Virus record (IMG/VR): IMGVR_UViG_3300037454_000542
Coordinates: 27,095 to 91,094 of that record
Direction: 5' to 3' (one strand)
From: a virus
Taxonomy: Duplodnaviria > Caudoviricetes
DNA length: 64,000 nt
Each line of letters begins with the position of its first letter. Position 1 is the first letter of the stretch. The notes beneath the pieces were generated by a model. It worked only from the letters and a program-made list of their open reading frames with translations. It did no database searches and was not told where the DNA came from. The position numbers and the translations under genes are program-made. This document shows positions 27,947 through 63,619 of this stretch, one piece after another.

Positions 27947-28975
27947 TCAAACTTTGTTAAGATCCACCGCAGACCGTGCGCATATTTCTCCGTTTTCATC
28001 GAAAAATGCACCTATTTGTTCGTCTGCGTCAGAATCGTTGTATATTGAACACATTGCCGATGAACTCCAGCCAAGAATCTCCGTAATCACGGAGTCTGGT
28101 ATCCCGGCCTTCGCCAGCATCGTGCAATAGAAGTGTCTGTATAAATGCACATAATGTGCTATGCCAAATTTCTTTGACATCGTCTCCGACCACCCGTCAA
28201 CCGTGGACGTAGGCATTTGCTGCTCTGGATCGTCGTCACGTGGAAACAGCCATTCGGAACGAATGCCCAAGATTTCTCTCTGCCGCATCCAGGCATCAAA
28301 GAACGGCTTGAACGGTTTTGCCAGCACATAGCAGTTAAGCTGTTTGCCGTCTTTACCTCTCCCTTTGGTGCGTATTGGCGCAGACTTATAAAGCGCGCCG
28401 TTACAAACAAGGCGTGAATCGTCAAAGTCGCTGACCCTGAACCTGCAGAGCTCCGACTTGCGCCTGCCGCTATATGCGGCAAGAGCGAAGTAACAAGCTT
28501 TCTTGTAGTCTCCTTCTTCCAGAAGAACGTTGAGCATATGCTCGACTTCCTCTTTGGAAAGGACTGTCTTTTCGCGCACCGGAGTCTTCGGTGGGCTCTC
28601 GATCTTGCGCACAATGGACTTGAAATCCTTGATCTCGTCATCAAGTATGTTCTCTATGAAGTTGGACAGAGAACTGACGGCTGCTTTTACAGTCCGTAAT
28701 CTATTAGACGACCAGCCCCATTCATTGAGCGCGTGGTTCTGGAACCTCGCAAGCTCACGCTTGGTCAAATCTACAAAGTATTTGTTTGCCAGTTCATCTT
28801 CGCACCAGCAAAAGAATATCAGAAGGTCGGCTTTATAATTCTTGATAGTAGTATCTGCGCGCCCTACGCTCTTCAAATAATCTATGAAGTCGTTCAACAA
28901 CGCGGCGTTCTCTGGATTGATGTTCTCAATCTTTTCGGGCGTGGTAATGTTATTATAAACCGTTTTTCTCCCCAT
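27947..28975 (-). CDS. Tyrosine recombinase (XerC/D-like) in late operon
   Basis: SGRRKSEL (R), HLYRH (HxxR), LGW (H/W), IY (Tyr). Confidence 0.85.
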   Translation of the reverse strand: MGRKTVYNNITTPEKIENINPENAALLNDFIDYLKSVGRADTTIKNYKADLLIFFCWCEDELANKYFVDLTKRELARFQNHALNEWGWSSNRLRTVKAAVSSLSNFIENILDDEIKDFKSIVRKIESPPKTPVREKTVLSKEEVEHMLNVLLEEGDYKKACYFALAAYSGRRKSELCRFRVSDFDDSRLVCNGALYKSAPIRTKGRGKDGKQLNCYVLAKPFKPFFDAWMRQREILGIRSEWLFPRDDDPEQQMPTSTVDGWSETMSKKFGIAHYVHLYRHFYCTMLAKAGIPDSVITEILGWSSSAMCSIYNDSDADEQIGAFFDENGEICARSAVDLNKV

Positions 28976-41961: not shown

Positions 41962-42357
41962 ATGCAGATCAAAATCTTCAAAGACCTCAAAAAGTTCACA
42001 CTCACCTCCACCCTGACCAAAGAGGACATCGGCCTCGTCAAGAAGTATCGTCCCTCCGCCCTGAAGAAACAGGACGCGGAAGGCAACGACATCTTCGCTG
42101 TGTCGTATGTCGAAGGTCGCCCCTGCATCTCCGCGAACGGTGTCACGTTCGGCGCTGCGAGTGCTAACGGCGGCTACGCTATGGTCTCCGGCGACCTGCC
42201 CGAGAACATAGATGCCGGCAAGTACGGCGAGTACATTGCCGACCTCGTGGGTGCTGCGCTTCCGTTCGTGAACGAACTTGAGGCGGCCATCCCCGAAGTG
42301 GTCAACACCATTAAGGCCGAACGCGCTGCCCTGCTTGGCGGTATCGTAGAAGCCTAA
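41962..42357 (+). CDS. Hypothetical protein at the head of the ubiquitin-like operon
   Basis: 131 aa, RBS GAAAGGA; codon usage suggests high expression. Confidence 0.7.
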   Translation: MQIKIFKDLKKFTLTSTLTKEDIGLVKKYRPSALKKQDAEGNDIFAVSYVEGRPCISANGVTFGAASANGGYAMVSGDLPENIDAGKYGEYIADLVGAALPFVNELEAAIPEVVNTIKAERAALLGGIVEA

Positions 42358-42439
42358 TCACCGCCTTGAGGCGATAACAAGGGATCAACACCAAATTACA
42401 TAGCATAAACAAATTAAACACTCGAAAGGAGAAAAAACT

Positions 42440-42679
42440 ATGCTTTCCATCAACGTAAGAACTAACACCACCCGCCGCACCGTTGCCTATGATGTCACCG
42501 CGACTCCGAGACAGGTGTTCAACGAGCTGAGAATCGACACTTCCACGTCGATGGTCAACCTCGACGGTACCATTCTGTCTGGCGCCGACTTCGACAAGAC
42601 CTTCGAAGAGCTGCGCGCCGTTGACGGTGCCACCGTTAACCTGAACGCAATCGTAAAAGCTGACGGCGCCCGCTGTTAA
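42440..42679 (+). CDS. Prokaryotic ubiquitin-like (beta-grasp) protein
   Basis: 79 aa; beta-grasp pattern (INVRTN...TPRQVF...LDGTIL...DKTFEEL...VNLNAIVKADG); next to E2, JAB and E1. Confidence 0.75.
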   Translation: MLSINVRTNTTRRTVAYDVTATPRQVFNELRIDTSTSMVNLDGTILSGADFDKTFEELRAVDGATVNLNAIVKADGARC

Positions 42680-42709
42680 TTGATCTTATCAGCGAGGAGG
42701 GGAGACAGA

Positions 42710-44227
42710 ATGTTTATTGCAAGAGAAGAACTCGAATTAACAAGCGAAGAGGCAAACGGTTGTTTTGGTCGCCCCTTCTCGCTTGGTGATGATTACTCGT
42801 TGTGTGCTCTGTTTAGGGCGGTCGTAATCAATCACGAAGAAAACCCAAAGGCTGAAGATATGCTCGTGAAGAGAAACTATCACGATCACGCATCGGAAGT
42901 TGCTGATTACTTCATTGGCAATGATCTCATACCTTTGAGAATTATACACTTTGGCGGCTCGTTAGACGACGCAAGAACCGGCATTAAGCAAACAATCGAC
43001 GCTATTAACGAAGTCAATAACGGGAATATGCCGCACTGGGTTACATTTGACGGCGAATCGACTAACGGAACGCCGTTATATTTGAACAAATATTTGAGCC
43101 AGTTTGCAAAAACGCTGGTGTACATTGCTCCGGATAAAAAGGCAATAATTCTGCTTTTCGACGCCAAAGCTTCCGACGAAGCAAAACAGTCTTTGGCTCA
43201 AGCGTTTGGGTCGATGCTGTGGGCAATAATGCCGTGGTACTATCCGGAAAAGGATGAAGAAACGATTGCGTTCTTCAAAAAATTGTCTGTCGAAAAGAAA
43301 CAGACGCAAGCGTCGCTCGACAGAGCAATTAACGCGCTCAAAGAGTATGTCAAGAAAGCCGCAGAAAAAGTCAATCTGCGCGATTTGAAACTTCATAGCC
43401 TGCTTGATGGCATCGCAGATAAAGCGAGACAGAATCAGATTGCTTCGCTCGAAAGCCAATATGAAGATAAAGCAAACAGAATCCGCCGGTATATGGAAGA
43501 GCTCGATCAACTTTATGAATCGATAGAGACGGTCAAATTGACTCTAAACGGGTTGAAGAATATGCCGGCAAAACAAGACGATTACATATTCAATTTCTTC
43601 CATACACACAGAAACATAACTGTTATCGGTTTTGATAGCACTGGCGAAAGCCTGAAGTATGGTGTTACCGACACGCTAGAGTTTTACGATCACGACGAGC
43701 TCGCGAAGCTGTTTGACAACGAAGATGGCTGGGTAAGACGCTTTTACAGCGAAAATGATATATGCTATTTCAAAGAATTGTTGCTCAACCAGCGCGGCAT
43801 TGTAAAAATCAACGCCGTGTTCCAGCTCAGAGACATGAGGTTCGTAAGACCGATTCGTGGAGAAACAATAGACCGTTCTGCTCTGCCAAATCAGCACATC
43901 TACCAGTACGGTTGCAATGGCGGTAACGACAAGTATTATGCCGGCTATGCAGATAGTGGTGATTGGGATTTAGGCGTCGAACAGTCGATTAGCGCAACTA
44001 AAAACTGGGCCGTCGGTGACTCGCTCGTGAGCCAGCGCATGCTTGAATGGATAGTGCGCAGTTCAACGCAGTTCATCTATGTAAGCGACGGCAGCCCGAT
44101 TGAACGTGTGACTCCGGAAATGAAGCTTGTTTCGTTCAACGAATTTAAGACATTAGTAGACAACAAAATAAAAGAAGAGCAGAGCGCGAACGAAGAAGCG
44201 CCGGCAGAAGGAGAAAACAATGGCTAA
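42710..44227 (+). CDS. Prokaryotic E2-like ubiquitin-conjugating domain protein with coiled coil
   Basis: Central coiled coil; C-terminal LPNQHIYQYGCNGG resembles the E2 H...CxG active-site motif; operon context. Confidence 0.55.
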   Translation: MFIAREELELTSEEANGCFGRPFSLGDDYSLCALFRAVVINHEENPKAEDMLVKRNYHDHASEVADYFIGNDLIPLRIIHFGGSLDDARTGIKQTIDAINEVNNGNMPHWVTFDGESTNGTPLYLNKYLSQFAKTLVYIAPDKKAIILLFDAKASDEAKQSLAQAFGSMLWAIMPWYYPEKDEETIAFFKKLSVEKKQTQASLDRAINALKEYVKKAAEKVNLRDLKLHSLLDGIADKARQNQIASLESQYEDKANRIRRYMEELDQLYESIETVKLTLNGLKNMPAKQDDYIFNFFHTHRNITVIGFDSTGESLKYGVTDTLEFYDHDELAKLFDNEDGWVRRFYSENDICYFKELLLNQRGIVKINAVFQLRDMRFVRPIRGETIDRSALPNQHIYQYGCNGGNDKYYAGYADSGDWDLGVEQSISATKNWAVGDSLVSQRMLEWIVRSSTQFIYVSDGSPIERVTPEMKLVSFNEFKTLVDNKIKEEQSANEEAPAEGENNG

Positions 44228-45053
44228 GAAAATCTACATCAACGAAGAAGAGGTAAACAAAATCCTCGCAGAAATCAAGAGTGAGATTACAAGGACGAAA
44301 TGCTATGGATCTGTTGAGATCAAAAAGTCTTTCGCCCAGGACAACCGCAAGGCAATTGTGTACTTCGGCGCCGACGCGTGGAACAAAGTCAGAGCTCTGG
44401 TAAGTGAGTTTGACACCGAAGTTCAGTGGCACGGACTCGTTGACCGCATCTCCGAAAACGAGTTCCTTGTGTACGATATTGTCGTACCGCCCCACGTTGT
44501 CACCGGGGCAACGGTTACATCCGACGAAACGAAATATCGCGAGTGGATCAACGCGCTCGACGATGACACATTCAATCATCTGCGCTTCCACGGTCACAGC
44601 CATGTAAATATGGGTTGTTCGCCGTCGAATGTGGATATGACATATCGCAAAGATATTGTTACGCAGCTTCCGATTCCGGAAGATGAAATGGAAGATTCGT
44701 TCTACATCTTCATGATCTTCAACAAAAAGAGCGAGTGGACGGGAGAGATTTACGACATCACGAACAATGCGCTGTACAGCACGAAAGAAATTGCAATCGA
44801 TGTTTATTGCGACGAACGCCTGTTGAGCGACTTCATCAAAGAAGCGAAAACACTTGCAATTAAAGAGACGCCGAAGCCTGTGACGCCGGTACAGACGACC
44901 GTTACGACTACAAAGGGCGGTAAAAAAAACGAAAGCTTCACGTATAACACGTATACCGCGAACGGTTACTCCGGAACATACAAAAGCTATTGCGACGATG
45001 ACAACGACAGCGGCTACGGAAACAAAGGAACGTGGTGGCGGTTCGACGACTAA
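44220..45053 (+). CDS. JAB/JAMM (MPN+) metalloprotease
   Basis: EVQW glutamate and HGHSHVNMGCSPSNVD (HxH-x7-S-x2-D). Confidence 0.85.
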   Translation: MAKKIYINEEEVNKILAEIKSEITRTKCYGSVEIKKSFAQDNRKAIVYFGADAWNKVRALVSEFDTEVQWHGLVDRISENEFLVYDIVVPPHVVTGATVTSDETKYREWINALDDDTFNHLRFHGHSHVNMGCSPSNVDMTYRKDIVTQLPIPEDEMEDSFYIFMIFNKKSEWTGEIYDITNNALYSTKEIAIDVYCDERLLSDFIKEAKTLAIKETPKPVTPVQTTVTTTKGGKKNESFTYNTYTANGYSGTYKSYCDDDNDSGYGNKGTWWRFDD

Positions 45054-45065
45054 GAAAGGAGTTCA

Positions 45066-45734
45066 ATGATGGATTTATCAAAAAGTTTTGAATACTTCAA
45101 TCCGCTTGAAGCAAAAGGCAAGTGCCACATTATCGGCTGCGGTTCCGTCGGCAGCACGATTGCTGAAAATCTTGCAAGGCTCGGGATTACGAACTTCGCG
45201 CTGTACGACTTTGACATTGTTGAACCTCACAACATAGTCAATCAGATGTTCGTTCAGTCCGATATGAAAAAGCTCAAGGTCGAAGCGACCAAGCGAATCA
45301 TCACCGACATCAATCCTGAAACAGAGGGAACTATTGAACTTCACCCCGAGGGATACACGAATCAAAAACTTAGCGGTTTTGTATTCCTTTGCGTCGATAA
45401 CATCGAGTTAAGACGCAAAATCTGCGAAGAAAATAGAATGAATCGCCAGATCAAAGTCATGTTTGATTGCAGAACAAGACTTGAAGATGCGCAGACTTTT
45501 GCCGCAGATTGGGGCGATTTGAGGCAAATAAAGAACTTAATTGCATCAATGGACTTCACACATGAGGAAGCGACCGCTGCGACGCCGATGTCCGCTTGCG
45601 GACGGGTTCTTGGAGTCGCTCCGACCGTAAGAGTTGTATGCGCTCTCTGCGTTTGCAATTTTATGAATTATGTGCTTGGCAAAGGGCTGAGGCAGGTAGT
45701 CGTGTGCGATCCGTTCAAGATGGAGGTGTTCTGA
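45066..45734 (+). CDS. ThiF/E1-like adenylyltransferase
   Basis: IIGCGSVGS, DFDIVEPHNIVNQ, CVDN...R, SACG. Confidence 0.9.
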   Translation: MMDLSKSFEYFNPLEAKGKCHIIGCGSVGSTIAENLARLGITNFALYDFDIVEPHNIVNQMFVQSDMKKLKVEATKRIITDINPETEGTIELHPEGYTNQKLSGFVFLCVDNIELRRKICEENRMNRQIKVMFDCRTRLEDAQTFAADWGDLRQIKNLIASMDFTHEEATAATPMSACGRVLGVAPTVRVVCALCVCNFMNYVLGKGLRQVVVCDPFKMEVF

Positions 45735-45735
45735 T

Positions 45736-45879
45736 GTGGAAGGATTTGGAATTTGTGTATTGATTACAACCATCCTGTTCTGGATCGAGACATTCTATGC
45801 GCAGCATCAACTTGATAGCCTCGACATACGAATTAGCAAACTCGAAAAGCGAGATGAAGAAAAAGATGAAACACGTTGA
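45736..45879 (+). CDS. Small membrane peptide (47 aa)
   Basis: GTG start after GGAGGTG; [14 protein letters not shown] hydrophobic helix; overlaps rnhA start; not in track. Confidence 0.45.
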
Positions 45880-46300
45880 CATATTCACCGATGGCGCTTG
45901 TGCCGGCAATCCCGGCCCCGGCGGCTGGGCTGCGATACTGAGATATGGGAGAACGGCCAAAGAGATAACCGGTCGTGAGGAACAAACAACAAACAACCGT
46001 ATGGAACTTACAGCGACGATAGAAGCCCTGTATGCGCTGAAAGAACCGTGCGACGTCACGCTTACAACTGATTCGAAGTATGTTGTTGACGGGATTAACA
46101 ACGGATGGGCTAAACAATGGAAAGAGCGAGGCTGGCGGAAAGCCGATAAAAAGCCGGCTCAGAACAAAGACCTTTGGGATGCTTTGCTCGGCCTGATAAG
46201 CGTACACGATGTAACATTCGTGTGGGTTAAAGGTCATAGCGGGCACATGGAAAACGAGCGATGCGACGCTCTTGCCGTCGCCGCCTACCAGAACATTTAA
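45866..46300 (+). CDS. rnhA: Ribonuclease HI
   Basis: [41 protein letters not shown]. Confidence 0.95.
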
Positions 46301-46304
46301 GTAA

Positions 46305-46622
46305 CTTGTGATGTTATCTCCAGGACACTAAACTCTGGAACTTTTGACGAAGGCAAAAGTACAAAAATGTCAGACCGAGGGACGCCGCCCAAGGCGCAGT
46401 GCACAGAGGCCGCAGGTCACCTCCTGACGATTACCACGACCTTACAGGGAAAAGTAGCGTGAAACTACCCCGTTGAACTAACCATTCAACGCAACACATG
46501 TCGAAAATCCGCGACTTTTTCGACACAAACTCCAACCTTGATGCTCAACATCAAGTTGGTGAGTCTGAAGACTTAGCGAATCGCTTCTTTCATGAAGGTT
46601 ACAAAACCTTGTAGATCACAGG
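46305..46622 (+). ncRNA. Retron-like msr-msd ncRNA, copy 1 (directly upstream of RT)
   Basis: Terminal IR CTTGTGAT/ATCACAGG; GTTAT; two stem-loops; AAGTACAAAAATGTCAGACCGAG; 3' part with several hairpins. Confidence 0.8.
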
Positions 46623-46640
46623 ACGAAAGGAAGAATTATT

Positions 46641-47795
46641 ATGCCGTACATTACAACAAGACGCACTCAAAGAACATATCAATTGACATTCGACGATATG
46701 CTTAATGGCTTCGATCCGTCGATGCTCGAAGTAACAAAAGACACATTTGATACTACGACGTGGTATGCAAACCGTGTGTCTGACAAAATGAACAACAAAA
46801 TGGACTACCACGGGATGTGGACTGCGCTGTACGAGTTCAACCAGAAGCACGCAGACCTCATCAATACCGAAGATAAGTCTACGCTGTATCGCAGCTTTAA
46901 GATTCCGAAAAGGTCTGGCGGGCTACGTCAGATCGATGCTCCGGGCGAGCCGCTAATGAACGCGCTTAGCGAGCTAAAAGAGATTCTCGAAAAGACCTTC
47001 TTCTTCACATATCATACTACGGCCTTTGCGTATGTTCATGGCAGATGTACGATTGACGCAGTTAAACGGCACCAGAAGAACGGTTCTCGCTGGGTTCTCA
47101 AGACCGATATGAGCAAGTTTTTTCCTCATACAACACCGGAGTTCCTGTTCAAGATGCTCTATCAGACATTCCCGCTCTGCAATTACATTAACGCGAGCTG
47201 GGGGTACAAGGAAGAGTTCGAAAAAGCGATGTCGCTGTGCTTCCTCAACGGTGGGCTTCCGCAGGGAACGCCGACCAGCCCGATGCTTACCAACCAGATG
47301 ATGATTCCAATTGATTACACAATCAACAAAATGTGCCACGAGTATCATCCGCACCTCGTTTACACGAGATATGCAGACGATATGGACATTTCTTCAGAGT
47401 TCGGCTTCCAGTGGACTGATGTTGTAAACAAGATCGGCGCTATCCTCAAAGAGTTCAAAGCTCCATTCGAGTTTAACAAAGAGAAGACACATTATGGCAG
47501 CACCGCAGGGCGCAACTGGATGCTCGGCGTGATGCTCAACAAAGAAGGCAACATCACCGTAGGCCACGAGAACAAGAAGACCTTCAAAACTTCTTTGTTC
47601 GCGTTTGGTAACTCTATCAAAGACGGCAAGCCGTGGAGCATTGAAGATGTGCAGCACCTGCAAGGAATTGCTGCATATTACAAGATGGTCGAAGGCGAGA
47701 CAATCGACGCAATAATCCAGAACTATTCAAACAGATTCGGGTTTGACTTAATAGAAATGATGAAGAGGGTGATTAAAGGCGAACGGGTTGCGTAA
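46641..47795 (+). CDS. Retron-type reverse transcriptase (standalone, no fused effector)
   Basis: IPKRSGGLRQIDAP, AFAY...DAVKRH (region X-like), DMSKFF, LPQGTPTSP, YTRYADD, MLG at the region Y position; 384 aa. Confidence 0.9.
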   Translation: MPYITTRRTQRTYQLTFDDMLNGFDPSMLEVTKDTFDTTTWYANRVSDKMNNKMDYHGMWTALYEFNQKHADLINTEDKSTLYRSFKIPKRSGGLRQIDAPGEPLMNALSELKEILEKTFFFTYHTTAFAYVHGRCTIDAVKRHQKNGSRWVLKTDMSKFFPHTTPEFLFKMLYQTFPLCNYINASWGYKEEFEKAMSLCFLNGGLPQGTPTSPMLTNQMMIPIDYTINKMCHEYHPHLVYTRYADDMDISSEFGFQWTDVVNKIGAILKEFKAPFEFNKEKTHYGSTAGRNWMLGVMLNKEGNITVGHENKKTFKTSLFAFGNSIKDGKPWSIEDVQHLQGIAAYYKMVEGETIDAIIQNYSNRFGFDLIEMMKRVIKGERVA

Positions 47796-48476: not shown

Positions 48477-48689
48477 ATGAACAACAACAAGAAGTACGTT
48501 TACGAAGGTGCTGTATATGCACGAGATTCATTGGTATCCGAGCGCTGGAAAGCGGTAACGTGGGCGTCGTCTGAGTCCAAGGCGATTTCCAATCTGAAGT
48601 ACCGTTTTAGAAATGACTATTACTACGAGCCGTGTGTTCCGTTATCGTTGCCCGGATCGCTTACGGTTATCGGCACAAAGAACAACTGA
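48477..48689 (+). CDS. Small hypothetical protein
   Basis: MNNNKKYVYEG...TWASSESKAISNLKYRF; RBS GAAAGGA. Confidence 0.65.
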   Translation: MNNNKKYVYEGAVYARDSLVSERWKAVTWASSESKAISNLKYRFRNDYYYEPCVPLSLPGSLTVIGTKNN

Positions 48690-48705
48690 GAGGAGAGAAA
48701 AAGAA

Positions 48706-49257
48706 ATGTATACACCCATCAATGCAAAAGTACATATTGCAAACTCCAACGATCCTGAAAAGAACGAGTGGCTTAGCCTTCCCATCGACGAAGACGAGCT
48801 TAACGAAGCCCTCGAGCGTCTCGGAATTTATTCCGACGAAGACGACGACGAGTATGAAGCAATTATAAACGGTGGAGAACCTAAACCCAGCTATATCATC
48901 CTTCAGTGGAACGATGACGAGGATCTGCTCGAAGAGCATTTGGCTCACAACGAAGACATTTTTCACGTCAGCGAGATTGTCGAACAGATCGAAGCTCTTG
49001 ACAACTATGACCGCGAAAAGATGATGGCGCTCATCGAAGACGGCGAAGATCTCGACGACGCCGCGGAACTTGCCACGGATGGAGATATTGAATTTTACTC
49101 CAACACCAACCTGCAGGATTTAGCAGAAGAGTTTGCCGGCGAAGAAATGTTCAGTCATGAATATTTGCTTCAGCATGTTGACTGGGCGAGTGTCGCAAGA
49201 GACCTTGAATACGATGGCTACACGGAAGTCAACGGCGGCGTTCTGGTCAGAAGGTGA
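48706..49257 (+). CDS. ardA: ArdA-family antirestriction protein (acidic DNA mimic)
   Basis: EWLSLPIDEDELNEALERLGI N-terminus, VDWASVARDLEYDGY C-terminus; highly acidic. Confidence 0.75.
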   Translation: MYTPINAKVHIANSNDPEKNEWLSLPIDEDELNEALERLGIYSDEDDDEYEAIINGGEPKPSYIILQWNDDEDLLEEHLAHNEDIFHVSEIVEQIEALDNYDREKMMALIEDGEDLDDAAELATDGDIEFYSNTNLQDLAEEFAGEEMFSHEYLLQHVDWASVARDLEYDGYTEVNGGVLVRR

Positions 49258-51102: not shown

Positions 51103-51444
51103 ATGAAGGCGTTGAAAGTTCAAGTAAGGAAAACACCAGAAGTAGTAGACATTGACACCTCACTCAAAACAATGCAGTCCGCGGTTGGCGGGCTTATCGA
51201 GATTTGGTGTCCCTATCCCGACCCTGTAGTAATAATATGTAACGAGGAAGGCAAGCTCATTCCTCTTGAAGCGAACAGATATGTGTATGATGAGTTTGAC
51301 GACACCATTGATTGCATATTTGGAGACTTTCTTATCGTCGGCGTCAACCAAGACGACGGAAGTGAAGAAGATTATTGCGATTTGACCGACGCACAAATCG
51401 AAAAGTTCAAAAGGATTTTCAGTAGGGAGGAATGTTATGCTTAA
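51103..51444 (+). CDS. DUF3846-like protein
   Basis: LKTMQSAVGGLIE, ICNEEGKL...NR, IFGDFLIVG motifs. Confidence 0.7.
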   Translation: MKALKVQVRKTPEVVDIDTSLKTMQSAVGGLIEIWCPYPDPVVIICNEEGKLIPLEANRYVYDEFDDTIDCIFGDFLIVGVNQDDGSEEDYCDLTDAQIEKFKRIFSREECYA

Positions 51445-52678
51445 TAAGAACGGCGAGCGTGAACTCGCCTACCTCGTTCAAGTTGACAGCATTACACCGA
51501 TGAATGCAGATCGTCTTGAGTGCGCTCATATAGGCGGGTGGCATTGCGTCGTCGGGAAGGGCGATTTTGCGCCCGGCGATCCTGCTGTATATTTTGAAGT
51601 CGATGCGCAGTTGCCGGATGAAGAACCATTTGCCAGCATTGATTTTTTAAGGTCAAAGAACTTCAAAATCAAAACGCAGAAGATTCGTGGCGAATATTCT
51701 CAGGGGCTTTTAGTCCCGGTGAGCGCGTTCGGCTGGACATACGATCAGATTTGGGAGCCCGGACAGCCAGACACGCGTCTCGGAATTGACGACGGTAAGA
51801 CAATCCGGTTTTTGAATGACGAATCTCGGTTCCTTACAAAGGAATTGAATGTGACTTATGCAGACCCGGAAGATAATAAGCGGAAAGCACCATCGTACGA
51901 TCCGGACAAAGCAACGATGAACATACATAAAAAGTTCTTCAGGCGGCGCTTCGTCAAGTGGCTTATGAAAAATAAGCTAATGCGCAAGATTCTGCTGTGG
52001 TTTTTCAGAGGTAAGGCGCCGAAAAAAGCAGAATGGCCGGCGTGGGTTAAGAAGACGGACGAAGAACGCATACAGAATTGTCCGGAAATCCTAAATCTCA
52101 ACGGGGTGAAATGGATAGCTACCGAAAAAATAGACGGAACATCTACGACATTCACACTCAGATTTTTCAAAGGAAAACCACGCTTTATTGTGTGTTCAAG
52201 AAATGTTGCGTTTAGCGATGGAGACAACAATGTATATACAAGCATGGCCCGCAAGTACGACATTGAATCAGTCATGAAAGATATGTTCGAGGATTTGCGC
52301 AAGGAAACCAACGAGCTTGAGTTCATCACGATCCAAGCGGAGACATTTGGCCCTGGTGTTCAGCGAAGAACATATAGCCAAGACGAGCCGCAAATGGCGG
52401 TGTTCAACCTGATTTATGGATATAAGGACGGTCACACAATCAGGCTGAACCCAATCCGCATGACTATGATTCTCGGCGGCGTGTACGAAATCCCGACTGT
52501 TCCGGTGCTTGGGTATGTCGATTTGCCGAAAACCTGCGAAGAAGTACTGGCGATGGCTGCCGCAGAACCATCCAAGATCGACGGCGGTATGCGCGAAGGA
52601 ATTGTGTTCCGCTCTGACGACGGGGTTCACTCTTTCAAGGCCGTAAACAACGATTATTTGCTGAAATATCATTCATAA
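51437..52678 (+). CDS. RNA ligase (Rnl2/DRB0094-like)
   Basis: N-terminal ADRLE..IGGW..VV..G.F..GD..VYFEVD; motif I TEKIDGTS; REGIVFR; FKAVN. Confidence 0.85.
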   Translation: MLNKNGERELAYLVQVDSITPMNADRLECAHIGGWHCVVGKGDFAPGDPAVYFEVDAQLPDEEPFASIDFLRSKNFKIKTQKIRGEYSQGLLVPVSAFGWTYDQIWEPGQPDTRLGIDDGKTIRFLNDESRFLTKELNVTYADPEDNKRKAPSYDPDKATMNIHKKFFRRRFVKWLMKNKLMRKILLWFFRGKAPKKAEWPAWVKKTDEERIQNCPEILNLNGVKWIATEKIDGTSTTFTLRFFKGKPRFIVCSRNVAFSDGDNNVYTSMARKYDIESVMKDMFEDLRKETNELEFITIQAETFGPGVQRRTYSQDEPQMAVFNLIYGYKDGHTIRLNPIRMTMILGGVYEIPTVPVLGYVDLPKTCEEVLAMAAAEPSKIDGGMREGIVFRSDDGVHSFKAVNNDYLLKYHS

Positions 52679-52691
52679 AGGAGATGCTAAC

Positions 52692-53765
52692 ATGCCGAAT
52701 CATGTACAAAACAGATTAACGTTCGATTGTTCTGAAGAGCGTGCGCTGGACATAATGTGCCAGATAATGTACTCCGACGACAGCAAAGAGGAGACTACCG
52801 GCTTGGGGACATTCGATTTCAATAAAATCATTCCGATGCCAAAAGAACTTGACATTGAATGTGGTACTTCGACAGATAACGCAATATCTGTGTATCTCAC
52901 AGCGGTCAACCCAAAAACTCCGGACTATTGCTTCGAGAAATTGAGCAAAGAGGAGTTTGCCAATCTGGTGCGAGATTTGAATGGTGAGCGCGTGTATTCA
53001 ACATATAATACGGCCATAGATAAAAAAGACCTCCAGAAGTATCTTGGCACGGATTCATTTGACAAAGTTTCGCACTTTGGCGAAAAGATTGTCGAAGCGT
53101 TCAAAAAGTATGGCTCGACAAATTGGTACCACTGGTGCGTTAAAAACTGGGGTACAAAGTGGAACTCATATGATGGCGGCAAAGAGGGCGACAACTTAAT
53201 CTACTTCAATACAGCGTGGAGTCCTCCGACTCCAGTAATAGAAGCGCTGGCACGCAAATACAAAGACGTTCATATCATTCACGAATGGGCTGACGAGGAC
53301 ATAGGCAATAACTGCGGGTCGAAAGAATACGTCGACGGGGAGCTGTTTGCCGTAAACGACTACACGAATATGAGCCATAAAGAGCTGGTAGATTTCGCCC
53401 TCGGAGTTTGGGGCGACACGCCGGAAAGCTACGGTTTCGTGCTTAACAAGTCCGGGACAGGCTATATCAATATGGATTGCGAAGATTACGAAGTCGTCGA
53501 GGTGCTCGGACAGCGCGCGCTGTTTACGAACGACCGCCTCTCGGACGACGACATTCCGGAGGGCATGTATGTATATCATTTGAGACACGATGACGAAGGC
53601 AACTTTGTAACCATAGAACCCAAGGTCATTGTTAATCATGCAGGAAGTATACTGACCGCAAAGCCAATTGATTTCGGCGACAAGGACTACATCGCTTTTG
53701 ACGAGGATAGTTCGCCGAACTTCAAAGGTACGAGCGAGACATTCTACGAATTTTTAGGAGGATGA
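52692..53765 (+). CDS. DUF1281/ferredoxin-like protein with C-terminal LPD28-like domain
   Basis: MPNHV, FDFNKIIPMP, WYHWCVKNWGTKWN, FNTAWSPP; C-terminal ALFTNDR...YHLRHDD...VIVNHAG. Confidence 0.65.
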   Translation: MPNHVQNRLTFDCSEERALDIMCQIMYSDDSKEETTGLGTFDFNKIIPMPKELDIECGTSTDNAISVYLTAVNPKTPDYCFEKLSKEEFANLVRDLNGERVYSTYNTAIDKKDLQKYLGTDSFDKVSHFGEKIVEAFKKYGSTNWYHWCVKNWGTKWNSYDGGKEGDNLIYFNTAWSPPTPVIEALARKYKDVHIIHEWADEDIGNNCGSKEYVDGELFAVNDYTNMSHKELVDFALGVWGDTPESYGFVLNKSGTGYINMDCEDYEVVEVLGQRALFTNDRLSDDDIPEGMYVYHLRHDDEGNFVTIEPKVIVNHAGSILTAKPIDFGDKDYIAFDEDSSPNFKGTSETFYEFLGG

Positions 53766-54821: not shown

Positions 54822-55808
54822 ATGGAGGTGGTTGTAATGCCGGAAGTAGCAAGTGTGCAAGTAGAAGTAAGTCCAGAGATATATCTTATGCAGATTAAGA
54901 AGCTGCAAGAGCGAGTCAACGAACTCGAATCTCAAAATCGTTCCCTCGGCGCTCAGGCGAGAATGGGCCAGGATCTCATAGGTCAGTTGCTCACAAGCAA
55001 AAGCAATATGGCAGACACCCAACCACCTAAGCAGAAAAAAGAGAAGCGTAAGCCCCGGGACGAAACTTATTCAGAATATAAGTCCGACGGAAAACTCAAG
55101 GCCCACGCCGCGGATTCAATCAGGTCGTACAGCGATTTCAAAGCAATACAGGATTATTTCCTAGCAAAGGGAAGAGTGCGCGATTGGATGATGTGGACGG
55201 TTGGTGTTAGTCTCGGACTGCGGGTCTCGGACCTGTTGTCGCTCAAGTGGCGCAACGTTATTGAAGATGACAAAGTAACTATCAGGAAACGGATAGAAAT
55301 ATACGAGAAAAAAACTGGCAAATTGAACAATTTGCTCATCACAGAGGCTGTAAAAAAAGCAATTTCTCGATATTTGGTATCTATAAACTACACGTTTGAC
55401 CTTGATGGATATTTGTTCGCCAGCAGGAAAACTGGCGGCAAGATGTATGAGGAACACGGCTGGAGAATATTATCCAGAGCCGGACGGGAGCTTGGATTGC
55501 CCATCGTGGTTGGGTCGCACACGATGAGGAAATCGTTCGCAAATATAGCGGCCTGCGTAGATAGATCGACGGTTGATATGAACTCAATCACAAAGGTTCA
55601 AGGGCTGCTCAACCACAGCGATCAGAAGGTAACAATGAGGTACCTGGGCACGTATCAGGAAATGTTTGACCGGGCACGCGTCGCTGTTAGCGACTTTGTT
55701 CTCGGCAAGACGGGAATCGACAGGATCATCGCCGGCAGTCAGCACACCGTCGATGACATTATGGATAGGCTCGAGGCGCTTGAAAATGCGCTCGCGGCTC
55801 AGAGGTGA
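54822..55808 (+). CDS. Tyrosine recombinase-family protein
   Basis: LGLRVSDLL, EKKTGK, HTMRKSF, LNHS, TMRYLG. Confidence 0.85.
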   Translation: MEVVVMPEVASVQVEVSPEIYLMQIKKLQERVNELESQNRSLGAQARMGQDLIGQLLTSKSNMADTQPPKQKKEKRKPRDETYSEYKSDGKLKAHAADSIRSYSDFKAIQDYFLAKGRVRDWMMWTVGVSLGLRVSDLLSLKWRNVIEDDKVTIRKRIEIYEKKTGKLNNLLITEAVKKAISRYLVSINYTFDLDGYLFASRKTGGKMYEEHGWRILSRAGRELGLPIVVGSHTMRKSFANIAACVDRSTVDMNSITKVQGLLNHSDQKVTMRYLGTYQEMFDRARVAVSDFVLGKTGIDRIIAGSQHTVDDIMDRLEALENALAAQR

Positions 55809-59427: not shown

Positions 59428-60591
59428 ATGACCGCAAATCTACAAGTTAAAAACGATAGGTACTACGCCGTAGTAAACTACAAGCAGAACGGCAAGTACA
59501 AACAGAAGTGGATTGCCCTCGGCTTGCCGGTAAAAAACAACAAGCGCAAAGCCGAGGCGATGCTTCCGGCGATTTTAGCAAAGTTTGAGAGCGATATACT
59601 TGGGCCGACGGCAGACACGCTGCTCACCGATTACGCAATGGTGTGGTTGCGCAAGAAAGCGGAACGTCTCTCTCCAACGACACGCTATTCGTATGAAAGA
59701 GCAATAAAGAACCACATTATAAAATACTTTGAACCCATGAACTTGAAGCTCAAAGAAGTGAGGCCGAAGCACGTACAGGATTATCTTGAATACCAAACAA
59801 CACACGGTAAGCGCGGAGGCGGAAAAATGTCGTGGTCGCTCACAAAGAAGGTAAAGTATTACTTGTACGCAATGCTGCAAGACGCGGTAGCGCAGGAGAT
59901 AATCAACCGTAATCCAGCAGAAGGAGTCAAGCCACCGTCGCTGAAACGCGAGGACAAACCGAAGCGCTGTTTCCTTACGGCGGAGCAAGCAAACAAATTG
60001 CTGGAGTCGCTGGCGGGTAGCGAAATATATCCTATTGTATATATAACACTTCTTTATGGGTTGCGCCGGTCTGAAGTTCTCGGGTTGCAATGGAAGTCGA
60101 TTGACTTCAAAAAAGACACGCTGTCGTTAAACCACGTTGTTGTTGTGACGACGAAAGTTGTCGAAAAGGACGATATGAAAACGCGGGCAAGCAATCATGT
60201 GTACAGACTGCTGCCGAACGCAAAGAAGGTGTTGATGGAAGAATATGAGAAATATCTTGAGAAGAGAAGGAGCCCGATATTCGAAGACAAAGGATATGTG
60301 TTTTGCTCGGCGGATGGCAACGCACTTCATCCGCAGAAGGTCGTGAGGATGTTTGCGCGGGCGTTAGAAGAGTGCGGGTTCCCGAAAATGCGGTTCCACG
60401 ATCTCCGGCATAGTACAGCAAGCATACTGTACGACAAAGGTTGGGGGTTAAAGGACATCCAAGCGTGGCTGAGACACTCTTGTATATCCGTAACGAGTGA
60501 TATTTACACTCACATAACCGACACTCGCGAGTCGCAAATCGCGTCGAATATAAATGATATTTTACCGTTTACAAAGGAGGTGAAAGAATGA
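59428..60591 (+). CDS. int: Site-specific tyrosine integrase
   Basis: N-terminal arm-binding domain; YGLRRSEV, FHDLRHS, LRHS, DIYTH. Confidence 0.92.
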   Translation: MTANLQVKNDRYYAVVNYKQNGKYKQKWIALGLPVKNNKRKAEAMLPAILAKFESDILGPTADTLLTDYAMVWLRKKAERLSPTTRYSYERAIKNHIIKYFEPMNLKLKEVRPKHVQDYLEYQTTHGKRGGGKMSWSLTKKVKYYLYAMLQDAVAQEIINRNPAEGVKPPSLKREDKPKRCFLTAEQANKLLESLAGSEIYPIVYITLLYGLRRSEVLGLQWKSIDFKKDTLSLNHVVVVTTKVVEKDDMKTRASNHVYRLLPNAKKVLMEEYEKYLEKRRSPIFEDKGYVFCSADGNALHPQKVVRMFARALEECGFPKMRFHDLRHSTASILYDKGWGLKDIQAWLRHSCISVTSDIYTHITDTRESQIASNINDILPFTKEVKE

Positions 60592-62457: not shown

Positions 62458-62840
62458 TTTTCTGTAACAACACAATTTACGCAAAAGTATGGAAAGTAAA
62501 ACCCGCCGAGAAATATCTCGATCTTCAGATTTCGACATCTGAGAAAGGCCAAGATGGCTCATACATAAACTCGAGCTGGTTCCCGCGTTGCATCGGCCAC
62601 GCTTTCAACTCTCTGAAAGACAAACTTAAAGAAGGCGACAGACTCGTAATCACTAAATCTAAGTTCACGAATGAGAAGTACACCGCTCAGGATGGATCGA
62701 TTAAATCCGCGTTCCGCTTCCTGATCCTGGAGGCTTCCATCGAACAGGGCCAGAATCCTGCTAATGCCGAAACGAAAGCTGCGACCACGCCAGAGCCTGC
62801 GGCGACGACAACGGCAAAAGAGGATGAATGTCCTTGGTAA
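62454..62840 (+). CDS. ssb: Single-stranded DNA-binding protein
   Basis: OB-fold-like sequence with acidic tail ending EDECPW; between ERF and a nuclease. Confidence 0.65.
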   Translation: MIFCNNTIYAKVWKVKPAEKYLDLQISTSEKGQDGSYINSSWFPRCIGHAFNSLKDKLKEGDRLVITKSKFTNEKYTAQDGSIKSAFRFLILEASIEQGQNPANAETKAATTPEPAATTTAKEDECPW

Positions 62841-63619
62841 CAGCCCAAACAGGAACGTCCGCCAAGGAGCGATATAGCTTTTCAAAATTAAGCTCTTGGC
62901 GGACGTGTCCCTACGGCTGGAAACTCAGATACATAGACGGTCGTTCTGGCGAAGGGAACGCGTTTTCATCCTACGGCACATTCGTCCACGGCATAATGGA
63001 GCGATACGCCAACGGAGAACTCGAAATATGGGATCTCCCAAACGTTTACGAGTGGGAGTTTGAAAGCGCAATTCCCGAAAAGTTCCCTAAAATTGCCAAG
63101 CTCAATATGAAAGACAACTACTACAAACAAGGGTTGTCGTTCTTGAAAGAGTTTGAGGGATACGATAAGTACGAAATACTTGACGTTGAACGCTCTTTTG
63201 ACATCGATATTGATGATTGGACTTTTAACGGAGTTATCGACCTTGTATTCAGAGACGAAGCCGGTAGGCTAATAATCCGAGATTACAAATCAAAAGCGTC
63301 CTTTACAAGTAAGAAAGAGAAGGCCGAGTACGCGAGGCAGTTATATCTCTACTCGATGTATGTAAAGGAAAAATACGGCGAATATCCCGCAGAACTTCAG
63401 TTCTTGATGTTCAGAAAGAACGATTTGGTTGTTATACCATTCGATCCGGCGGGTGTTGAAGAAGCAATAAACTGGGCTCGTGAAATAGTTGCGGAAATAC
63501 GCGAGGCTTTCGATTATCCGCCTATGTGCAGATTTCAGACAAAGAACGATACGTTCTACGCAGACAATCTGTGCAACCACAGGGGATATTGTGAGTTCAA
63601 AGCGGGGCGAGAAGATTGA
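62828..63619 (+). CDS. PD-(D/E)XK (RecB/AddB-like) exonuclease
   Basis: YSFSKL...CP, GTFVH, GVIDLV, IRDYKS, QLYLY, C-terminal Cys residues. Confidence 0.85.
   Translation: MSLVTAQTGTSAKERYSFSKLSSWRTCPYGWKLRYIDGRSGEGNAFSSYGTFVHGIMERYANGELEIWDLPNVYEWEFESAIPEKFPKIAKLNMKDNYYKQGLSFLKEFEGYDKYEILDVERSFDIDIDDWTFNGVIDLVFRDEAGRLIIRDYKSKASFTSKKEKAEYARQLYLYSMYVKEKYGEYPAELQFLMFRKNDLVVIPFDPAGVEEAINWAREIVAEIREAFDYPPMCRFQTKNDTFYADNLCNHRGYCEFKAGRED

Follow-up and report, generated by a model that had tools for sequence, protein, structure and literature searches.

Operons that combine a gene for a ubiquitin-like protein (Ubl) with E1, E2 and JAB genes were predicted on bacterial mobile elements in 2006 (PMC1779556), and Bil, Bub and type II CBASS have since been characterised (Bil and Bub in PMC11601596). 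Bacterial Ubl conjugation is so far known as host defence, in Bil, in type II CBASS and probably in Bub. Bil (BilABCD) holds Ubl, E2, JAB/JAMM and E1 activities in one operon and has no E3, its E2 being thought to choose the target itself (PMC11601596). Release of the Ubl in type I Bub (formerly 6E.1) is JAB-dependent, BubCD cutting BubAB after Gly229 (PMC11601596). The fusion partner of this Ubl is an E2, with oxyester chemistry and a DUF6527 serine protease. In type II CBASS, it is the C-terminus of the cyclase itself that is conjugated. Here we describe a complete-looking kit of this kind that is owned by a virus. It lies in a 64,000-nt stretch of DNA (the window), which is the right-hand 64 kb of the 91,094-nt IMG/VR virus record IMGVR_UViG_3300037454_000542 (CheckV completeness estimate, 77%), and it consists of a beta-grasp tag (Ubl), its small partner p131, a His/Cys protein that is a candidate E2-like transfer enzyme (E2L), a JAB/JAMM metallopeptidase (JAB) and a ThiF-type E1, followed by a retron-type reverse transcriptase (RT). 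We favor the reading, to which we assign a probability of about 0.5, that the cassette is a self-contained module for activation and transfer of the Ubl, situated in an early arm of anti-defence type and forming one functional unit with the adjacent RT. No paper returned by a literature search dealt with a phage-borne kit in which Ubl genes are coupled to an RT.

Seven co-directional genes occupy positions 41962-47795 on the plus-strand arm of the window (Table 1). A first-pass annotation of this DNA had described tightly linked genes for a beta-grasp protein, a coiled-coil protein with an H...C-x-G motif, a JAMM protease and a ThiF protein that run on into rnhA and the RT, and this layout was confirmed, with all genes on the plus strand. 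The p131 gene lies inside the stretch covered by that description and had not been mentioned there. An AGGAG-type ribosome-binding site stands before each of the five cassette genes (p131, Ubl, E2L, JAB and E1). The start of E2L was placed at ATG 42710 and not at TTG 42680, because GAGGAGG precedes the ATG, and the end of E2L overlaps the start of JAB by 8 nt. A pattern scan for promoter-like and terminator-like sites gave counts that did not exceed those in shuffled sequence, and the scan is therefore uninformative on transcription units.

Tag, activating enzyme and peptidase of the cassette

The assignment of the E1 was straightforward. It matched ThiF PF00899 with an E value of 1.5e-21, its best PADLOC matches were the E1-E2 (Cap2-type) models of CBASS (2.6e-16), it also matched the 6A-MBL cap2_3 model (9.5e-18), and its sequence matches in the PDB include UBA5, Uba1, Cap2, MccB, MoeB and TcdA. 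Residues G24xG26xxG29, D48, K71, D111, R116/R117 and C178 are invariant in ten homologues, and the residues that bind nucleotide and Mg are intact; among the IMG/VR homologues, GxGxxG was found in 77 of 77 and TPxSAC in 72 of 77. In contrast to the E1 architecture given for Bil in PMC11601596, the phage protein is a single ThiF domain of 222 aa with a loop Cys178. It also stands alone, unlike the E1-E2 fusion of type II CBASS, and a SMODS match sought as the mark of a CD-NTase was not found in the 91-kb record; a JAB peptidase accompanies both systems, and the phage cassette has a dedicated beta-grasp tag where CBASS uses its cyclase. The E1 family to which the phage protein belongs reads HN[IL][AV]NQ at the segment that is SNLxRQ in canonical E1, MoeB and ThiF proteins. 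The same change from Arg to Asn is seen in three of six ThiF proteins from plasmid cassettes (NLKNQ or NLNNQ), which are described below.

The JAB protein carries the motif HSHVNMGCSPSNVD, which conforms to HxHx7Sx2D, together with an upstream Glu. E67, H126-x-H128, S136 and D139, which make up a complete JAMM signature, are invariant in 13 homologues, and HxHx7Sx2D was present in 75 of 75 IMG/VR homologues; the JAB/JAMM residues E67 and H126xH128x7S136xxD139 are thus a feature shared with Bil. Matches to the JAB models of PADLOC were weak (E 0.008-0.03). From about residue 225 to residue 277, the protein has a low-complexity tail in which Tyr, Gly and Asp are abundant, ending ...YTANGYSGTYKSYCDDDNDSGYGNKGTWWRFDD, and a divergent JAB from another contig (L028) has a comparable acidic/aromatic end, ...LYDDDDDIYYGALSNFYNTKGI. 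This tail could be a docking motif.

The Ubl had no match among the hidden Markov models (HMMs) of Pfam, PHROGs, NCBIfam and PADLOC. Sequence searches of the PDB were likewise negative for p131, the Ubl, E2L and JAB. We compared a profile of 91 members of the Ubl family with a ThiS/MoaD alignment of 30 sequences from 30 genomes by hhalign, and found that the two align in register over nearly the whole domain (Prob 58.6%, P 9.5e-5), as compared with P values of 0.002 to 0.57 for control profiles. In the ESM Atlas, the named clusters closest to the Ubl, which we use as leads only, are all beta-grasp proteins (ThiS, TmoB, YukD and ubiquitin; scores 0.83-0.84), and one Ubl homologue carries the JGI annotation ThiS. 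These comparisons of sequence give good support to the Ubl being a ThiS/MoaD-like beta-grasp protein. Together with the E1 and JAMM evidence, they also support the first-pass claim that the phage itself carries the Ubl/JAMM/E1 machinery, and we regard the presence of a phage-borne module of E1, JAB and beta-grasp tag as well supported.

The C-terminus of the tag is its most characteristic part. All 83 of the 83 homologues in the subfamily of the window (56-85% identity) end in ...KADGA plus one to three variable residues. In the wider family, taken from loci found with the RT as a query, the C-terminus is K-x-D-[N/G/S]-A and mostly K-x-D-N-A, so that the Gly before the terminal Ala is particular to the subfamily of the window. 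The open reading frame (ORF) stops right after the Ala in 41 of 70 related loci, and tails of one to three residues follow K-x-D-N-A in a further 15. The interchange of Gly and Asn at one position suggests to us a requirement for backbone conformation there, and not a reactive terminal Gly. Since the ORFs of the family often stop at the Ala, and some join p131 there, Ala77 is the probable mature, activated end, and the residues 'RC' that follow it are probably trimmed in this phage. The earlier proposal that JAB trims the residues ARC and so exposes a Gly is unlikely, as the ORF ends at Ala in those 41 loci and the Ala is fused to p131 in nine. The N-A or G-A end sets the phage tag apart from Bil, where a C-terminal Gly is usual for the Ubls, and from ThiS/MoaD systems, which share its beta-grasp affinity and end in Gly-Gly.

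Fusions of this kind connect p131 to the tag. No family match for p131 was found in Pfam, PHROGs, NCBIfam or PADLOC, and the protein has no invariant Cys. Wherever a locus is long enough to tell, p131 directly neighbours the Ubl. In nine IMG/VR loci, the two form a single reading frame in which the Ubl comes first and p131 begins immediately after '...K-x-D-N-A', as in ...VVKADNA-AKIKV..., to be compared with M-Q-I-K-I at the start of p131 itself; unfused loci have the reverse order, p131 and then Ubl. Furthermore, the p131-Ubl pair is tandemly duplicated in the divergent contig L028. On the basis of the fusions in sister phages and of this duplicated pair, we consider that p131 belongs to the tag, for which it could serve as cargo, target or adaptor. 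BubAB offers a precedent for the fusions in that a Ubl is made as a fusion precursor and a JAB frees its C-terminus (PMC11601596). The partner differs, p131 being devoid of an invariant Cys where Bub has an E2, and JAB and E1 are separate proteins here. With respect to Bil, p131 has no counterpart in the operon, and the present cassette is phage-encoded and locked to an RT. A further candidate role, p131 as a second beta-grasp protein, was unsupported (hhalign P 0.46 with the Ubl profile and 0.5 with that of ThiS).

Linkage of the cassette to a retron-type reverse transcriptase

The RT matched PADLOC RT_II-A at 1.6e-47 and RVT_1 at 8.8e-19; it matched the NCBIfam model of the retron St85 family at 1.2e-51 with 175.7 bits, which is under the 235-bit cut-off of that family. 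By these matches, the protein belongs among the retron RTs. At least 542 relatives were recovered from IMG/VR with the RT as the seed, and the best 80 of these were used for all counts of RT loci given here. The first-pass annotation had tied the cassette to the RT and had proposed a check of their co-occurrence, which bore the tie out. E1 lies upstream of the RT in 77 of the 77 related loci that have upstream sequence, and 66 of 80 have the whole block p131-Ubl-E2L-JAB-E1-RT with conserved gene order and a common strand. Among the remaining 14 loci, 11 keep E1, the cassette being cut by the contig end or interrupted upstream, and in the other three 143-1070 nt separate the RT from the end of the contig, with nothing readable upstream. 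When loci were collected with E2L as the query instead, the RT came next after E1 in eight of nine with enough flank (the window, L001, L004, L006, L007, L008, L013 and L015).

The cassette and the RT co-diverge down to 15-35% identity. For E1, JAB and E2L, pairwise identities track those of the RT with Spearman coefficients of 0.84, 0.89 and 0.92, respectively; as the sequences are interrelated, these correlations describe co-inheritance and do not amount to an independent test. The genes that flank the block in the window are not recognisable in the 80 RT loci, suggesting that the block itself is the conserved unit. The accessory genes are thus strictly co-inherited with an RT that matches retron models, as retron effectors are; differences from retrons are that this RT falls below the cut-off of the St85 family and that the system lies in the early arm of a phage. 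A literature search returned no paper describing a Ubl/ThiF/JAB effector of a retron or RT.

The gene between E1 and the RT in the window encodes an RNase HI (PF00075, 4e-45; NF001236, 1.9e-65). Among the loci found with E2L, it occupies this position only in the window, L001 and L013; among the RT-seeded loci, it is present in three of 80 and in none of them between E1 and the RT. Judging from this distribution, the RNase HI is an optional add-on outside the conserved block. Contig L028 (Table 1) has a layout of its own, with two p131-Ubl pairs (the Ubl copies being identical), E2L, JAB, an extra 190-aa acidic protein and E1, and a Bro-N-like protein stands downstream instead of an RT.

E2L, plasmid cassettes and competing readings

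E2L is composed of an N-terminal alpha/beta domain (residues 1-195), a coiled coil (200-283, with a helix at 235-283) and a C-terminal His/Cys domain (290-500). AlphaFold2 modelled the whole protein with a pLDDT of 91.1, and residues 285-505 with a pLDDT of 93.8 and a pTM of 0.88. In the model, the C-terminal part runs from a helix through two strands, a three-helix insert, two more strands and a loop holding His396 and Cys402 to three final helices, and this predicted order of elements is that of a UBC core. H396, C402 and G404 are invariant, and H-x5-C-x-G was found in 75 of 75 distant homologues of 15-47% identity. The cassette is made of protein families without a Pfam model, and the E2L family alone, likewise without one, comprises about 2170 clusters (2170 clusters at 50% identity reach E<=1e-3). 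E2 families of Pfam, NCBIfam and PADLOC gave no match to E2L. In BFVD, the sole significant match was a member of the E2L family, with a giant-virus E2 third at E 0.45; chains of E2, E2Q and RWD recur among the weak Foldseek rows (E about 0.7-3.5), alongside unrelated folds. A lead from the Atlas was a viral cluster scoring 0.83, in which 11% of the members carry Prok-E2_D. We built Prok-E2_D profiles from homologues of one genome match and from Firmicutes plasmids, Prok-E2_D having matched in one of 401 genomes of the host phylum. Against these profiles, E2L gave hhalign P values of 0.0097-0.02 at a Prob of 2-4%, as compared with P values of 0.07-0.6 for controls, and the alignment pairs strand beta4 and P-x-P-H...C-x-G of E2L with Y-P-x-F-N...C-x-G-x-N of Prok-E2_D.

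Cassettes with Prok-E2_D share the gene order of the phage locus. They belong to PRTRC/Prok-E2_D systems of plasmids and integrative elements, which like the present one are carried by mobile elements; PF14460 (Prok-E2_D) is the family of 'PRTRC system protein B'. Both the plasmid cassettes and the window have two small genes, then E2_D or E2L, a JAMM protein and a single-domain ThiF protein, with overlapping genes, and five of the seven plasmid loci inspected had the order E2-JAB-ThiF, the middle gene encoding a JAMM motif. In a 6x5 hhalign matrix of the window cassette against a Firmicutes plasmid cassette (x-x-Prok-E2_D-JAB-ThiF), the best pairs were the positional equivalents: E1 with ThiF (P 1.3e-9, Prob 96.4%, with the conserved crossover-loop Cys, Cys178, aligned), JAB with JAB (P 2.2e-4, Prob 45.5%) and the C-terminal domain of E2L with E2_D (P 0.018), all other pairs having P >0.05. 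The likeness has limits. The window cassette falls under the curated PRTRC cut-offs, its E1 scoring 30.6 bits against 144.75 for PRTRC_ThiF (TIGR03736), and it matches neither PF14460 nor other PRTRC models. E2L, at 505 aa, includes a coiled coil and an additional N-terminal domain, and the YPxFN segment is missing from it. The ParB-related protein that is a feature of PRTRC has no equivalent here, ParB_N (PF02195) giving no match in the 91-kb record, which CheckV puts at about 77% complete. The partner genes differ as well, being a retron-type RT here and Rad52, DnaN or helicase genes in the plasmid cassettes. In three of five Firmicutes plasmids, the cassette follows genes of the Rad52 family and dnaN, and in one other it follows a DEAD-box helicase, which suggests a connection with the element's own replication or establishment, and not with a defence island. 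Most cassette proteins of the plasmids L021-L024 and L026 (NZ_CP077640, NC_019898, NZ_CP026119, NZ_CP033050 and NZ_CP068596) are annotated 'hypothetical protein', and a literature search for PRTRC gave genome or transcriptome studies and no functional study among the matches listed.

Motif, element order, gene position and profile comparison taken together make E2L a plausible, highly diverged E2-like enzyme. We put the odds of this assignment at roughly even, the UBC fold of E2L being putative. The first-pass description of an E2-like protein was borne out for the coiled coil and the invariant H396...C402-x-G404, and was not confirmed for the UBC fold, for which there was no significant Foldseek or HMM match. 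The structural modelling that it had suggested for this gene likewise gave a confident model with a UBC-like order of elements and no significant fold match in the PDB. The E2 of Bil has a UBC fold and a catalytic Cys; E2L offers an invariant Cys402 and the UBC-like order, with Foldseek E values >=0.2 and no E2 HMM. Two other interpretations of E2L were rejected. One was a second activated C-terminus, prompted by a final Gly in 80 of 176 family members, of which 70 have 'NG'; we do not take this end as a signal, because the NG arises from the 8-nt overlap AATGGCTAA with the conserved JAB start Met-Ala-Lys and because distant homologues end otherwise. The other was that 'GCSGGN' marks an Ntn-hydrolase, a class II amidotransferase or a PP-loop enzyme, an idea raised by low-scoring matches to chains of beta-lactam/asparagine synthetase, Taspase and the proteasome, with E values all >=0.3. 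The PP-loop/Ntn interpretation was rejected because Cys402 of the model lies in an inter-helix loop and the residue after the Cys is mostly L, M or I, unlike SGGxDS.

In the mechanism that we propose, every chemical step is inferred, as are the target and the function of the 505-aa protein as an E2. The JAMM peptidase would trim the 79-aa tag after the invariant Ala77 (...K-A-D-[G/N]-A), or, in sister phages, would free the tag from the Ubl-p131 fusion. The ThiF-type E1 would then use ATP to adenylate the new C-terminal carboxylate, and the tag would probably pass as a thioester to Cys178. From there, it may move to Cys402 of E2L, with the N-terminal domain and the coiled coil of E2L selecting the target; there is no E3 here, as in Bil. 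The tag would end up on a target lysine, for which p131, the RT or its RNA-DNA product complex, and a host protein are candidates, and the JAMM peptidase could undo the conjugation. If the kit does tag proteins, it would give a testable handle on what phage-borne retron-type RTs do and on whether phages turn Ubl chemistry against their hosts. The N-A/G-A end and the natural Ubl-p131 fusions would provide simple and decisive read-outs, namely the cleavage site and the activated residue.

Several observations weigh against this reading. Most Ubl relatives end in Asn-Ala, and the canonical C-terminal Gly-Gly is absent from the tag. Residues 55-60 of the E1 read HNLANQ, in which Asn replaces the Arg of SNLxRQ. 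Two models of E2L compared with the PDB by Foldseek returned nothing significant (E >=0.2), no E2 family was found when 49 E2L members were compared with Pfam at E<=1, and an hhalign Prob of 2-4% is no statistically significant tie of E2L to the UBC superfamily. The cassette of L028 is the only one without an adjacent RT, none being present <=6.9 kb downstream. A closer union, in which cassette and retron are one machine and the tag (with p131) is ligated to the RT, its RNA-DNA product complex or host immune proteins, seems to us rather doubtful. We are equally reserved about the corollary that the RT product would control tagging, so that reverse transcription would be coupled to Ubl tagging in phage takeover or counter-defence.

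The block may instead be a prophage-borne anti-phage defence, a new type of retron in which the RT and a non-coding RNA sense infection and an effector of Ubl, E1, E2L and JAB tags proteins of superinfecting phages in the manner of Bil. Such a role would fit an RT that falls among retron RTs (PADLOC RT_II-A, 1.6e-47), a temperate phage with integrase genes, and the fact that the known Ubl-E1-E2-JAB systems Bil, Bub and type II CBASS act in, or are assigned to, defence (PMC11601596 and PMC10097602). Likewise, the six-gene block is kept as a unit whose flanks are not shared with the 80 loci, as expected of a mobile module. On the other hand, the block lies in the early arm beside ArdA, LPD28 and RNA ligase genes, which are typical of counter-defence or establishment; it is not patchy but present in every related phage contig examined; it has no apparent toxin-type effector; and its co-divergence with the RT to 15-35% identity would suit a function that the phages have long kept better than an island that is swapped. 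We consider defence unlikely on balance, though a serious contender.

Conjugation could also proceed without an E2, and the archaeal SAMP/UbaA and Thermus TtuB/TtuC systems are known to conjugate in this way. E1 alone would then transfer the tag, using its own invariant Cys178, and the 505-aa protein would be a target, an adaptor or an unrelated cysteine enzyme. The lack of a significant UBC match for E2L by Foldseek, HMM and hhalign, and the asparagine synthetase/beta-lactam synthetase, Taspase and proteasome chains among its weak Foldseek and Atlas rows, are in keeping with this. We find it distinctly unlikely, as the universal H-x5-C-x-G at 15-47% identity argues for a catalytic role, the modelled order of elements resembles that of UBC with Cys402 in a loop, unlike an Ntn nucleophile, which would begin a central strand, and E2L sits in the exact position of Prok-E2_D in the plasmid cassettes, E2_D being also its best hhalign partner. 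A sulfur-carrier or acyl-adenylate pathway appears to us improbable. In such a pathway, the activated C-terminus of the tag (e.g. a thiocarboxylate) would modify nucleic acid such as the RNA/cDNA of the RT, and the part of the JAMM peptidase would be limited to maturing the carrier, for which CysO/Mec+ and TtuB are precedents. The nearest detectable relatives of the tag are indeed ThiS/MoaD sulfur carriers, including the homologue annotated ThiS; the sequence matches of the E1 in the PDB include the E1-like proteins MccB and TcdA; and the cassette is locked to an enzyme that synthesises nucleic acid. Triads of Ubl, E1 and JAB have moreover been described in sulfur metabolism (PMC1779556). Nevertheless, scanning of the seven proteins in four libraries gave no rhodanese, cysteine desulfurase or PP-loop thiolase, nor did the neighbouring proteins that were scanned include a ThiG/MoaE-type partner. 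The tag ends in N-A or G-A and not in the Gly-Gly typical of sulfur carriers, a large His/Cys protein occupies the E2 position, and the Ubl-p131 fusions resemble the conjugation-type precursor BubAB.

Phage record and neighbouring genes

The minus-strand arm of the window encodes a 2010-aa tape-measure protein, tail proteins, a portal, a terminase and an integrase, on which basis the source is a temperate tailed phage. It is a gut phage and a siphophage. Near-identical DNA was looked for among GenBank phages and was not found. The same cassette occurs on contigs of three metagenome-assembled genomes, two with the label Clostridia and one with the label Bacteroidales, all of them from uncultured organisms. 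Downstream of the RT are genes for ArdA, an RNA ligase, an LPD28/Api92-like protein, two integrase-family proteins and a PD-(D/E)XK nuclease (Table 1).

Table 1. Positions of the cassette genes, of other genes in the window, and of features in related loci
Feature	Location	Strand	Length (aa)	Remarks
p131	window 41962-42357	+	131	AAAGGA ribosome-binding site
Ubl	window 42440-42679	+	79	ThiS/MoaD-like beta-grasp tag; C-terminus ...IVKADGA-RC
E2L	window 42710-44227	+	505	His/Cys protein; candidate E2-like transfer enzyme
JAB/JAMM metallopeptidase	window 44220-45053	+	277	Tyr/Asp-rich C-terminal tail
JAB low-complexity tail	window 44890-45053	+		residues ~225-277
E1	window 45066-45734	+	222	minimal single-domain ThiF-type
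RNase HI	window 45797-46300	+	167	between E1 and RT
Retron-type RT	window 46641-47795	+	384	
ArdA	window 48613-49257			match 2.9e-09
RNA ligase	window 51437-52678			with PHA02142 OB domain
LPD28 + DUF1281_C protein	window 52692-53765			Api92-like
Phage_integrase protein	window 54822-55808	+		
Phage_integrase protein	window 59428-60591	+		
PD-(D/E)XK nuclease	window 62828-63619			
PHROG integrase	window 27947-28975	-		
Ubl-p131 fusion	L069:1986-2681			
Ubl-p131 fusion	L070:2845-3543			
Ubl-p131 fusion	L071:2169-2885			
Ubl-p131 fusion	L072:2060-2677			
Ubl-p131 fusion	L103/L104:3121-3795			
Ubl-p131 fusion	L113:2920-3648			
Ubl-p131 fusion	L117:2881-3489			
Ubl-p131 fusion	L130:3181-3789			
Cassette of L028	G002:C51, 6901-12190	-		two p131-Ubl pairs

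Judged by gene content, the plus arm around and downstream of the RT looks like an anti-defence or establishment region. Genes of the integrase family occur three times in this one phage record, once on the minus arm and twice on the plus arm.

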